A program made the translations under genes and the position numbers. The notes under the pieces were generated by a model. It made no database searches. It was not told where the DNA came from and was given only the letters and a program-made list of their open reading frames with translations. 64,000 nt of DNA from Escherichia phage KEP4, in sequence record PP047754; one strand, 5' to 3'. This document shows positions 3,749 through 7,110 of this stretch, piece after piece. Position 1 is the first letter of the stretch, and each line of letters opens with the position of its first letter.

Positions 3749-4423
3749 TTGGAGCATGTCATGTCTTATTCGCTCAAAGGGTTGTTGAAGCGCCCCGTAC
3801 ATCTGTTTGTAAAACCACCTGCTGTCGAAGGGGAATATCCGGCACGAGGAGAGTTGTATTACGTTAAAGGCTCCAACGGTAGCGGCAAGTCCACTGTCCC
3901 TTCCTATCTGGCGGAGAATGATCCTCAGGCGTATGTCGTGACCTACAATGGTAAGATCATGCTCACAGTTTGCCCTTCCTATAACATTATCTGTATTGGT
4001 AAATATGACAAGTCTAAGTCTAAAGGTGTTGATTCCCTGAAAGATACCGAGCAGATGTTGTTCGCCTTGTCCATTGCTGATCAGCCGGAATATCTGAAAT
4101 ATGATGTGATTTTCGAAGGCATCATTCCGTCTACATTATTGAGTTCTTGGATTCCCCGCCTGACACGCCCACCACGTGAATTGGTCGTCCTCTTTATGGA
4201 TACCCCTCTTGAAACCTGTATTGCCCGTGTTAAATCGCGTAACGGTGGCGCAGACTTCAATGAAAGTCTGGTGGTCGAGAAGTGGGAGAGAGTTCATGAT
4301 CACCGTCAACGGCATAAAGGCTTGTTCCCTACCGTTCCCGCAGGTATGATGAAGTCCGATGGCCTGACTGTAGAGCAGGCTGTTTTTGCGTTTCTCAATC
4401 GTGATTTTGGGAGTATTGATTGA
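3749..4423 (+). CDS. P-loop NTPase / nucleotide kinase-like protein
   Basis: Walker A GSNGSGKST near N-terminus; 4-nt overlap with downstream TS-family gene. Confidence 0.55.
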   Translation: MEHVMSYSLKGLLKRPVHLFVKPPAVEGEYPARGELYYVKGSNGSGKSTVPSYLAENDPQAYVVTYNGKIMLTVCPSYNIICIGKYDKSKSKGVDSLKDTEQMLFALSIADQPEYLKYDVIFEGIIPSTLLSSWIPRLTRPPRELVVLFMDTPLETCIARVKSRNGGADFNESLVVEKWERVHDHRQRHKGLFPTVPAGMMKSDGLTVEQAVFAFLNRDFGSID

Positions 4424-5463
4424 TGGAAATTTTTGCTCTAAATAATAATGACATGCTCAAGAAAGCTGTGTTGGCTATCCGTGAACACGGGATTGAGTCA
4501 GATCCTGGCAACGCAGAGATTAACACTGACGGGACTCGTTTTATTGATGGCGTGACGATTACGGTGGCTGATCCTCGAGATCGTTGGTTATCTGTTGAAG
4601 GTCGTAATTCATCTGCGCTTGCTGCGATTGGTGAAACATTCTGGGTTCTGTCAGGCCGCAATGACATCCGTTTCCTTTCCCGAGTCCTCCCTCGTGCGGT
4701 CAACTTCTCGGATGATGGCGTAACGTGGCGTGGTGCTTACGGACCACGTCTGTACAACTATGGCCAGCTGGATAGTGTTATCAACCGTTTGCGCAATAAC
4801 CCCAACACCCGTCAGGCGTATCTCACCATCTATGATCCAGCTCTGGACTCAGATGAAAGTTTGGCCGCGCATAGTGAAACAGGAGAAGCCAAGACTAAAG
4901 ACATGATCTGTAATCTGGCTTTATTGTTCAGTATAACAGAAGGGCGGTTGAACATCACGGTCATCAATCGAAGTCAGGATGTCCTCTGGGGTATGAGTTC
5001 AATCAACTTCATTGAATTCTCCATTTTGCAGGAAGTATTGGCGAAGGTGCTGAACGTGGAAGTCGGGAATTATAAACTGTTCTCGAATAACCTTCACTAT
5101 TACAACAACGAAGTCAGTCGGAAGCAACTCGGGAACATAACCAACAAGACCCGAACTTCTACGGGTATGTACAATTCGTTGTTGGAATTCTCTTCGGAAA
5201 AGGTGAAATGTCAAGAAAACATCCAAAATCTGTTCCTCGGTGTACTTCATCACTGTGACATTGGCAGTGAATTTGGTAAAATCAGAGAGCATTTGAAGGA
5301 ATATAACGCAGATACAGGTTTGATGATGGATATGTCATATTGTCTGTGGTGTCGTCTTAATGATACCAAAATTGATAAACGTCGGATTGCTGATGATGGT
5401 CTTCGTAATGCGTTGTTACAATCACCCGTTGACCGTAAACACATGTGGGGGTATGGGGAATGA
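4420..5463 (+). CDS. thymidylate synthase-family pyrimidine (hydroxy)methylase, 347 aa with C-terminal extension
   Basis: TS-fold motifs: nucleophile Cys in DMICNLALLF, RQAYLTIYDP, NRSQDVLWG..SINF with Asn at the base-specifying position (uracil-type). Confidence 0.7.
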   Translation: MMEIFALNNNDMLKKAVLAIREHGIESDPGNAEINTDGTRFIDGVTITVADPRDRWLSVEGRNSSALAAIGETFWVLSGRNDIRFLSRVLPRAVNFSDDGVTWRGAYGPRLYNYGQLDSVINRLRNNPNTRQAYLTIYDPALDSDESLAAHSETGEAKTKDMICNLALLFSITEGRLNITVINRSQDVLWGMSSINFIEFSILQEVLAKVLNVEVGNYKLFSNNLHYYNNEVSRKQLGNITNKTRTSTGMYNSLLEFSSEKVKCQENIQNLFLGVLHHCDIGSEFGKIREHLKEYNADTGLMMDMSYCLWCRLNDTKIDKRRIADDGLRNALLQSPVDRKHMWGYGE

Positions 5464-6029
5464 AATACCCTAATTTGGAATTCTTTACGGGGCGCAAGCG
5501 CTCCGGTAAGGACTTCTGTTTGGAGTCCCTCATCAGCTATCACCATTTACAGGGTGATATGGACATCCAGCGCTTATCTTTCTCAGACGAGTTGCGTCGG
5601 GTGGCTCATTACATCTATCCTTGGTTGCCAGAGGAAGTAGAGGACGATATCAAGGACTTGCCATATGTTCACCCAGATAACCCCAAGGGATTAACCCCAA
5701 GGCAGATCTGGCTTCATCTCGGCAGCGATACGGGGCTTCGTTATGTCCAACCGGATCTGTTTTTGTCTTTCTTTAAGCGTTACCAACTCCCATTAGTTGA
5801 ACAGAATCCTAACATTCATTATATTGTGAGTGATCTACGGACGCCTCAAGAATATGAATGGGCGCTGAGCACTAAATGTCCCATCACCCGCATTTCAAAG
5901 GCAGATCGCGGCGGTATCATAGAGGACGACATAGAGGCTTTCATTGATGAGATGAAAGTTGATTATGAATTTGTTAACCCATTTGAAGGTTGGCAACCAT
6001 TCGTCAAATTTTATAGGGATCGGAAATGA
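5445..6029 (+). CDS. deoxynucleoside monophosphate kinase (T4 gp1-like)
   Basis: N-terminal FFTGRKRSGKDF matches T4 gp1 P-loop FLSGVKRSGKDT; size 194 aa. Confidence 0.6.
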   Translation: MGVWGMKYPNLEFFTGRKRSGKDFCLESLISYHHLQGDMDIQRLSFSDELRRVAHYIYPWLPEEVEDDIKDLPYVHPDNPKGLTPRQIWLHLGSDTGLRYVQPDLFLSFFKRYQLPLVEQNPNIHYIVSDLRTPQEYEWALSTKCPITRISKADRGGIIEDDIEAFIDEMKVDYEFVNPFEGWQPFVKFYRDRK

Positions 6030-6580
6030 TCACAGCAGAGCATATCAAAAGTCTGCTCGAACTTCAAAAGGCCACCAACGTGGCCTATTTTGGGGAAGAG
6101 TGGAAAAGCGTTTGGAACCAGAACGCTGTTGTTAATTCCATTTATCGTGAGTGGGCTGAATTCTTGGATGAAACAACAACCGACTGGAAGGTCTATGGAA
6201 ACGATATCGGGTTTGATCGTACGAATGCAGTTTATGAACTGGTGGACGTGGTTCACTTCATGCTGTGCTTTGTTCTATTGGACCGCACCAAAGGTGAGAT
6301 CGAAGAAGAATTTGAAATCCTTGATGGCCGCGAATTTACTCCACCTGCTTTGGGTTCTGTTGGACACCGAGGTGTGACGTACCGCCTTGGGCAGTTCATG
6401 AACGATCCTTGTGTTGAGACTCTAATGTTCTTCCTGTCGTCTGCGTGCTCTTATATGGAGGTCGACACCGAAACCTATATGCTGGCCCACAAGCGCAAGA
6501 ACGATCGCAATCGTCTACGTGCTGCTGGCGGTGCGAACTATGACAAGTCTGCCGAAACCCCTCTGACTCTGGAGTTCTAA
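6026..6580 (+). CDS. MazG-like all-alpha NTP pyrophosphatase (dCTPase/dUTPase, gp56-like)
   Basis: EWAEFLDE-type acidic helix motifs, 184 aa, position inside nucleotide module. Confidence 0.45.
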   Translation: MITAEHIKSLLELQKATNVAYFGEEWKSVWNQNAVVNSIYREWAEFLDETTTDWKVYGNDIGFDRTNAVYELVDVVHFMLCFVLLDRTKGEIEEEFEILDGREFTPPALGSVGHRGVTYRLGQFMNDPCVETLMFFLSSACSYMEVDTETYMLAHKRKNDRNRLRAAGGANYDKSAETPLTLEF

Positions 6581-7110
6581 TGTTTACAGTTGTCGTATCA
6601 TATTATGCGGAACATGCCCCGTACATGGCAGAGAACTTCGCTGAGTTTATTAAACCAGGCGGTCATGTCGTTATTGCGACCAATTTCAAGAAAGAGCCAG
6701 ATGGTGCGGCTACTGTAACACAACATATTACAACCAAAGAGCCGGAAACACTTTTTAAACGCATTGAAGATTTTGCTTTTGGCGGGGAAGAAATTCCAGA
6801 GTCATTACAGCATATCTATTTTGAAGATGCGATATATTATGTTCATGCTATACCAAAAGATGTTACAACCGAACAACTAATGTATGTTTTGAATATTGCG
6901 TTAAATTTGTCATGTGTCAATAGGGCACAGCATAATCGTCTGCGCAATATGTATTTAACAGAACGCGGGGGTTCCGGAATCAGTGATGAAAAACTCCCGT
7001 CGGTAATGGCAATTCAAGAAGCAATTAACATATTGTCCAAGAAAGTCTTGGGCACCGATTTATTAATCACGATCAACAAGCAAGAGGAAACGAAATGGCC
7101 GATTCATTGA
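6580..7110 (+). CDS. hypothetical protein (176 aa)
   Basis: ORF, start overlaps previous stop (ATGA-type coupling). Confidence 0.5.
   Translation: MFTVVVSYYAEHAPYMAENFAEFIKPGGHVVIATNFKKEPDGAATVTQHITTKEPETLFKRIEDFAFGGEEIPESLQHIYFEDAIYYVHAIPKDVTTEQLMYVLNIALNLSCVNRAQHNRLRNMYLTERGGSGISDEKLPSVMAIQEAINILSKKVLGTDLLITINKQEETKWPIH

Follow-up and report, generated by a model that had tools for sequence, protein, structure and literature searches.

Salmonella phage ViI and phage CBA120 replace ~40% of the thymidine (T) in their DNA with 5-(2-aminoethoxy)methyl-2'-deoxyuridine (5-NeOmdU), a base derived from 5-hydroxymethyl-2'-deoxyuridine (5-hmdU) and identified by liquid chromatography-mass spectrometry and nuclear magnetic resonance in ViI, CBA120, CBA6 and 1.255.O (PMC5889632). 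A phylogeny of the CBA120, ViI and AG3 enzymes was published in 2011 (PMC3184105), and the modified base was reported in 2018 together with the pairing of kinase and hydroxymethylase genes (PMC5889632). ViI gp67 moves the γ-phosphate of ATP onto 5-hmdU in DNA (Lee et al., PMC8989533), and the activities of ViI gp247, a serine transferase, and gp226, a decarboxylase, were demonstrated in 2021 (PMC8989533). A 2024 review describes the genes for the modification as conserved throughout the family (PMC11721090). Here we describe the corresponding locus of Escherichia phage KEP4 (PP047754), five overlapping genes at positions 3749–7110 of a 64,000-nucleotide stretch of its sequence, hereafter the window. 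The region very probably represents the core operon of a ViI-type thymidine hypermodification pathway in a Kuttervirus.

More distant systems differ from the window in informative ways. Bacillus phage SPO1, whose deoxyuridine monophosphate (dUMP) hydroxymethylase is gp29, keeps hmdU in its DNA unmodified and, unlike the window, has no 5-hydroxymethyluracil DNA kinase (5-HMUDK). In Acinetobacter phage SH-Ab 15599 (Ackermannviridae) the gene order is hydroxymethylase (HMase, gp17), kinase/pyrophosphatase (gp18), UvsX and helicase; kinase and pyrophosphatase are fused in one 391 amino acid (aa) protein rather than encoded separately, 5-HMUDK is not adjacent, and the pathway ends in diaminopropanyl-thymine instead of 5-NeOmdU. 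That pathway has been rebuilt in E. coli with the SH-Ab 15599 dUMP HMase (PMC13458397), which is 37% identical (E=8e-48) to the window enzyme. Each half of gp18 has a homolog among the window genes, and Vibrio phage K489 has the same gene order as the window. The T4 pre-replicative module follows the same logic, pairing a hydroxymethylase of the thymidylate synthase (TS) family (gp42, acting on dCMP) with a dedicated deoxynucleoside monophosphate (dNMP) kinase (gp1) and a pyrophosphatase (gp56, a dCTPase/dUTPase) that clears away the canonical triphosphate. Unlike the window, however, T4 modifies cytosine instead of uracil, uses glucosylation instead of a kinase and amino-acid transfer, and has dispersed genes.

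Sequence comparison assigns the phage to the ViI-like Kuttervirus group of Ackermannviridae. Read in reverse orientation, the window runs colinear with ViI (Vi01; 30.4–42.6 kb and 134.8–157 kb) at a DNA identity of 86–92%, and positions 3700–7150 are 97.6% identical to Salmonella phage GG32. These positions match 269 phage records, nearly all of them Ackermannviridae with Salmonella, Klebsiella, Escherichia, Dickeya or Shigella hosts, and the annotated relatives of the window are Kuttervirus by taxonomy. Five open reading frames (ORFs) fill the + strand between 3749 and 7110 (Table 1), and translation probably begins at ATG codons a little way into the longest ORFs; the resulting lengths match those of the ViI genes. 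The overlaps at the four junctions are 1, 4, 4 and 1 nt in the 5' to 3' direction, and a further 16 nt are shared between the fifth gene and uvsX; the five genes are translationally coupled. A GGAG Shine-Dalgarno sequence lies 6 nt 5' of the kinase ATG. A scan for sigma-70 promoters showed no excess of sites (18, compared with 14.0 ± 3.6 in shuffled sequence), and none 5' of 3761. The ViI cluster Vi01_061c–057c (gp67, 'thyA' dU hmt, dnk, dUTPase, hypothetical) is alike in gene order and overlaps, serves the same 5-NeOmdU pathway (PMC5889632, PMC8989533), and encodes proteins identical at 97% (kinase), 93% (TS homolog), 91% (dNMP kinase) and 99% (ACT-like protein). Unlike these, the window pyrophosphatase is just 64% and UvsX 73% identical to ViI, the pyrophosphatase allele being otherwise found in Klebsiella, Dickeya and EP75 Ackermannviridae. 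A preliminary description of this DNA, made from its letters alone, had listed four overlapping genes; these exist, are conserved and do overlap, but the fifth, ACT-like gene was missed.

Table 1. Operon genes and other features of the window discussed in the text
Feature	Position	Strand	Details
Terminator-like hairpin, 13-bp stem	3714..3742	+	in the 72-nt gap between the upstream-gene stop (3688) and the kinase start (3761)
5-Hydroxymethyluracil DNA kinase (5-HMUDK, ViI gp67 ortholog)	3761..4423	+	220 aa, PF18748
Predicted dUMP hydroxymethylase, TS-family, C-terminal five-helix domain	4423..5463	+	346 aa, PF00303
gp1-like dNMP kinase	5460..6029	+	189 aa, PHROG 139
Dimeric-dUTPase-family all-alpha NTP pyrophosphatase	6026..6580	+	184 aa, PF08761, PHROG 173
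ACT-like small protein	6580..7110	+	176 aa, PF24021 (ACT_phage)
dCMP deaminase (supplies dUMP)	21830..22351	-	94% to ViI Vi01_030; PF00383 E=3e-17
QueC-like protein	24733..25392	-	91% to ViI Vi01_023
Second MazG-like pyrophosphatase	32723..33298	-	73% to ViI Vi01_011, no Pfam match
Amino acid:DNA transferase, aGPT-Pplase2 (serine to 5-phosphomethyldeoxyuridine, 5-PmdU)	46111..47346	-	92% to ViI gp247; PF18724 ADDT E=2.8e-61
Second 5-hmdU DNA kinase	48103..49008	-	86.5% to ViI gp243; PF18747 HMUD2 E=3.5e-149
NT5C-like 5'-deoxynucleotidase	49324..50106	-	PF06941 32.7 bits vs. cut-off 24.8; 86% to ViI Vi01_194
DNA polymerase	50504..53500	-	98.3% to ViI polymerase
Pyridoxal phosphate (PLP)-dependent decarboxylase (O-seryl-T to 5-NeOmdU)	57192..58385	-	93.4% to ViI gp226 (residues 30–423)

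The first gene of the operon anchors this assignment. Its product matches Pfam PF18748 from end to end (E=4.4e-115, 382 bits), is 97.3% identical to ViI gp67 (YP_004327432), and carries a Walker A motif, GSNGSGKST, at residues 37–45; a PDB sequence search returned no significant match. By this orthology the protein is identified as a post-replicative 5-hmdU DNA kinase, predicted to act on the 5-CH2OH group of hmdU in DNA and not on nucleotides. The P-loop NTPase of the preliminary description is not a generic nucleotide enzyme but a 5-hmdU DNA kinase. Since the protein would act post-replicatively, the module covers steps both before and after replication. Orthologs of the remaining modification enzymes are also encoded in the window, and for the two DNA kinases, the serine transferase and the decarboxylase, as for the modified base in virion DNA, the evidence is experimental in orthologs 86–97% identical. 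The presence of the HMUDK, transferase and PLP enzyme orthologs, with the modified DNA of the relatives, supports the earlier proposal of a module for a non-canonical pyrimidine, for example 5-hydroxymethyl-dU, that also excludes its canonical counterpart. The PLP decarboxylase scores 31.4 bits against PF00291 (PALP), under the Pfam cut-off of 35, and its Lys65, the Schiff-base lysine, corresponds by offset to ViI K92. The 64-kb window does not include gp160, the ViI aGPT-Pplase1 paralog. The DNA polymerase must accept 5-hmdUTP. The NT5C-like protein, whose gene lies between those of the polymerase and the second DNA kinase, is a candidate for a dTMPase like those known from hmU phages (PMC8989533).

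The proposed pathway would begin before replication, with the phage dCMP deaminase providing dUMP. The TS-family enzyme would then put the methylene group of methylene-tetrahydrofolate (methylene-THF) on C5 of dUMP via Cys163, and in its open active site water, not the folate hydride, would attack the exocyclic methylene, yielding 5-hmdUMP and THF. The gp1-like kinase would make the diphosphate and host nucleoside diphosphate kinase 5-hmdUTP, while the dUTPase-family pyrophosphatase would destroy dTTP and dUTP, so that the polymerase inserts hmdU for T. After replication, 5-HMUDK would phosphorylate the hydroxymethyl group in DNA, the transferase encoded at 46 kb would swap this phosphate for serine, and the PLP enzyme encoded at 57 kb would decarboxylate the serine adduct to give 5-NeOmdU.

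The central question is the identity of the TS-family enzyme, which is 100% identical to its GG32 counterpart and 93.4% identical to ViI thyA, the only TS-family gene annotated in the whole ViI genome. Pfam PF00303 (Thymidylat_synt) covers only residues 68–234 (E=2e-15), and scores against six NCBIfam thymidylate-synthase equivalogs range from 35 to 57 bits, all below the cut-offs of 108–405. The top PDB sequence match is the CMP hydroxymethylase MilA (E=2e-17), compared with ~1e-6 for E. coli-type TS. Similarity falls from Ackermannviridae to ViI-like Vibrio phages, SH-Ab 15599, M6-like, YuA-like and SPO1-like phages, with T4-type td matching at ~1e-5 only; the SH-Ab 15599 homolog carries the annotation deoxyuridylate hydroxymethyltransferase. 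Active-site residues kept from TS (E. coli numbers in brackets) are C163 (C146), E71 (E58), Y106 (Y94) and N195 (N177), together with R130, R183, S184, D186, H225 and Y227, whereas W80, W83, H147 and R127 of E. coli TS are changed to A92, F95, N164 and Q131. Among 64 homologs C163 is invariant, N195 nearly invariant, and the S-D-D-G motif at residues 96–99 invariant. In the residue table from which these correspondences were read, T4 gp42 Asp179 and T4-like td Trp80 are shifted by 1–2 columns in the alignment, and those entries are not literal. The asparagine that the preliminary description had placed at the base-specifying position is thus N195, and it speaks for a uracil substrate, which agrees with the specificity switch published for an Asn-to-Asp change (PMC8670742).

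A neighbour-joining (NJ) tree was built from 177 core columns with 300 bootstraps. The references were E. coli ThyA (identical to PDB 1aob), T4-like td, T4 gp42, the SH-Ab 15599 enzyme, a MilA fragment (residues 36–218 only, taken from a HMMER alignment) and phi18, which stands for the 86% identical SPO1 gp29; further members were Ab19, Epa38, Vibrio K489 and metagenomic homologs. The window protein falls inside a clade with all dUMP hydroxymethylases, namely the SH-Ab 15599 enzyme, phi18 and the M6-like and YuA-like enzymes, MilA forms the next branch, and TS and T4 gp42 lie outside. TS plus T4 gp42 separate from the rest in 244/300 bootstraps, and the hydroxymethylase-like clade without MilA is recovered in 241/300. 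SPO1 gp29 shares this clade, at ~37% identity to the window enzyme in the 177-column core. Both enzymes retain the catalytic Cys, Glu, Tyr and Asn, and in both CN replaces the CH of TS and [FY]SDDG replaces WDEW. Four metagenomic clade members (P0050, P0083, P0099 and P0107) are 512–594 aa long, one of them attributed to a Propionibacteriaceae metagenome-assembled genome; their extra C-terminal regions had no Pfam match, and a fusion of HMase and pyrophosphatase was not demonstrable from them.

The enzyme is enlarged by about as much as the preliminary description had estimated (~60–80 aa). It has 346 aa, compared with 264 aa in E. coli ThyA, and the TS core ends at about residue 236, after which 110 residues follow instead of the 46 in ThyA, or ~64 extra. 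An AlphaFold2 model built with 64 homologs (mean predicted local distance difference test score 95) shows five helices past residue 264. When this model was compared to the PDB with Foldseek, seven MilA chains ranked first, with TM scores of 0.71–0.75 (0.74–0.75 for the top hits) over ~355 aligned columns, while canonical TS chains reached ~0.55 over 245–270 columns. MilA, the Streptomyces rimofaciens CMP 5-hydroxymethylase (PDB 5jnh, 5b6d), is thus the top match among solved structures in both sequence and fold, with ~20% identity over the full length (Foldseek) and ~33% in the 177-column core. Its additional five-helix C-terminal domain sits at a distance from the active site (PMC5175136), and both MilA and the window enzyme have such a domain and lack the TS C-terminal lid (PMC5175136); in the window protein the five helices stand in place of the ...PVAI tail. 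In TS this tail closes off the active site to allow hydride transfer, and its absence from T4 dCMP hydroxymethylase has been linked to hydroxylation (PMC6400193). T4 gp42, with 246 aa, has no C-terminal domain, while the SPO1 gp29 type is also long at the C-terminus, the phi18 ortholog having 383 aa. All dUMP hydroxymethylase-type proteins compared have 346–383 aa, so the larger size is characteristic of the class rather than peculiar to this phage.

The preliminary description had left the choice between TS and hydroxymethylase open. The tree, in which the protein does not cluster with canonical TS, the NCBIfam cut-offs, the fold and the modified DNA of relatives all support a dUMP hydroxymethylase of the SPO1 gp29 type rather than a thymidylate synthase, the reaction being predicted from homology, with indirect support from the pathway rebuilt in E. 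coli with the SH-Ab 15599 enzyme (PMC13458397).

The two following genes encode the putative nucleotide-level partners of this enzyme, which the preliminary description had named a gp1-like dNMP kinase and a MazG-like NTP pyrophosphatase. The dNMP kinase matches PHROG 139 (E=2e-48), and its P-loop, GRKRSGKD, shares the unusual form GxKRSGKD with T4 gp1 (GVKRSGKD). Beyond the P-loop the similarity to gp1 is marginal (pairwise BLAST E=0.003, no Pfam DNMK match), and a PDB sequence search gave nothing significant and no gp1 match. Homologs are present in PhiW-14 and ViI-like Vibrio phages, and the protein shares 31.6% identity (E=7e-19) with the SH-Ab 15599 gp18 N-terminal half; it would convert 5-hmdUMP to 5-hmdUDP. 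The pyrophosphatase matches PF08761 (dUTPase_2) at 29.9 bits, above the cut-off of 22.9, as well as PHROG 173, has weak PDB matches to the C. jejuni and T. cruzi dimeric dUTPases, and keeps the ExxE...ExxD acidic residues (E42, E45, E71 and D74, aligned with C. jejuni dUTPase). It is 25% identical (E=3e-10) to the C-terminal half of gp18, the assayed dTTPase/dUTPase domain; according to a 2026 report, gp18 hydrolyses dTTP and dUTP and spares 5hmdUTP (PMC13458397). From homology we infer a dTTPase/dUTPase specificity for the window pyrophosphatase, as we do the hydroxymethylase reaction and the dNMP kinase substrate. SH-Ab 15599 gp18 (10090–11265) carries a gp1-like dNMP kinase domain fused at its N-terminus; the published account consulted covers only the C-terminal domain.

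Several observations weigh against this reconstruction. The TS phosphate ligand R21 aligns with G29 in the Kuttervirus clade, and the NJ tree is based on 177 columns, with canonical TS represented by just two sequences and MilA by a fragment. The pyrophosphatase is just 25% identical to the assayed gp18 domain, and Y35 and W56, two of the residues implicated by docking for gp18 (PMC13458397), are not conserved in the pairwise alignment. ViI has two further MazG-like genes, one of which is also in the window, and another protein could be the dTTPase. We found no published assay for the TS homolog, dNMP kinase or pyrophosphatase of the window or ViI. Finally, plain thymidine makes up ~60% of the T in ViI virion DNA, and these genes do not account for its origin.

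Some of these points bear on whether the pyrophosphatase is only a house-cleaning dUTPase, with dTTP exclusion incomplete or carried out by another protein such as one of the other MazG-like enzymes. Its Pfam family and PDB relatives are dUTPases, two of the proposed gp18 specificity residues are not conserved, a second MazG-like gene is present, and the gene shows allele replacement among phages. However, among the three MazG-like proteins of ViI-type phages, homology to the assayed dTTPase/dUTPase is confined to the operon protein, and its SH-Ab 15599 counterpart occupies the same operon slot as a fusion with the dNMP kinase. Moreover, CBA120 incorporates no 3H-thymidine, an exclusion that needs dTTP removal and led to the proposal in 2011 that its dUTPase also removes dTTP (Kutter et al., PMC3184105). 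We therefore consider a plain dUTPase unlikely, though a reading to be taken seriously. The allele replacement itself is visible in the identities: the pyrophosphatase is ~65% identical to those of most Salmonella kutterviruses including ViI and 90–92% identical to the Klebsiella, Dickeya and Escherichia EP75 Ackermannviridae versions, while the dNMP kinase and ACT-like genes on either side of it are 91–100% identical to Salmonella phages. UvsX is encoded at 7095–8180.

It is very improbable that the TS homolog works as a normal thymidylate synthase, making dTMP, in a cluster that is a plain nucleotide-supply module. The PF00303 match is above threshold, the full core catalytic set including the uracil-specifying Asn is present, 'thymidylate synthase' is the annotation in public records, and the unmodified ~60% of T in ViI DNA (PMC5889632) would be consistent with such an activity. 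Yet the protein lies outside canonical TS in the tree and far under every equivalog cut-off, its nearest fold is that of a hydroxymethylase, and it lacks both Trp80 and the C-terminal lid, which shield the methylene intermediate from water (PMC6400193). It is also translationally coupled to a DNA kinase whose required substrate is hmdU in DNA, and its ViI ortholog is the sole annotated TS-family gene in a genome with an hmdU-derived base. Activity on dCMP, as a hydroxymethylase or methylase like T4 gp42 in a phage that modifies cytosine, we regard as practically excluded. Although MilA, the closest solved structure, is a cytidylate hydroxymethylase, and the downstream genes are reminiscent of T4 gp1 and gp56 functions, the base-specifying residue is Asp in MilA, which prefers ribo-CMP, and in T4 gp42 (PMC8670742), while the window enzyme has the near-invariant Asn195 and keeps H225/Y227, the H207/Y209 pair of TS; gp42 is an outgroup in the tree, and in ViI-like DNA dC is normal and dT is modified (PMC5889632, PMC3184105). 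The kinase is almost certainly not the small terminase subunit named by RefSeq (in ViI, GG32 and phage barely) and by a PHROG 800 match (E=1e-68), given its 382-bit match to Pfam HMUDK, the published kinase assay on 97%-identical gp67 (PMC8989533) and the true small terminase gene of ViI, which adjoins its large terminase gene and makes the label an annotation error. The same mislabel of the 5-hmdU DNA kinase has spread across many RefSeq phage records.

The fifth gene of the operon encodes a small ACT-like protein (PF24021, E=9e-89; 99% identity to its ViI counterpart), translationally coupled on both sides, whose family amounts to just 9 sequence clusters among 5.8 billion proteins. The model is confident only for residues 1–110, which form a beta-alpha-beta-beta-alpha-beta fold, and Foldseek returned weak ACT-domain matches (best E=2e-3) without a functional lead. 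The last ~30 residues (...AINILSKKVLGxELLTTINKQEEVKWPVH) are nearly invariant and modelled at low confidence; they may form an interaction motif. Vibrio phage K489 and SH-Ab 15599, both with the same core module, lack the gene, and a profile comparison with the K489 gene in the same slot gave no match, leaving no K489 counterpart. It is a doubtful, speculative suggestion that this protein is an undescribed pathway component, either a sensor of serine, folate or nucleotides tuning the hydroxymethylase or dTTPase, or a factor turning ~60% of hmdU (or 5-PmdU) back into thymine.

Directly upstream of the operon, positions 2729–3688 encode a 319-aa protein of PHROG 3905 that is 99% identical to its ViI counterpart. 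A protein with 29% identity (E=8e-28) is encoded at the same position in Vibrio phage K489, and this gene may travel with the module. Elsewhere in the window, a small ORF at 56703–57152 (- strand) with an ART-PolyVal ADP-ribosyltransferase-like domain (E=2e-10) adjoins the PLP decarboxylase gene.

The system described here is a correct re-identification of a known pathway and not a new one, the cluster and most of its enzymology having been published between 2011 and 2026. Its value for annotation is that public records widely mislabel the kinase as 'terminase small subunit' and the hydroxymethylase as 'thymidylate synthase'. With the pathway in place, the DNA of this phage is predicted to be resistant to many restriction enzymes and to show unusual behaviour in certain sequencing and cloning protocols.

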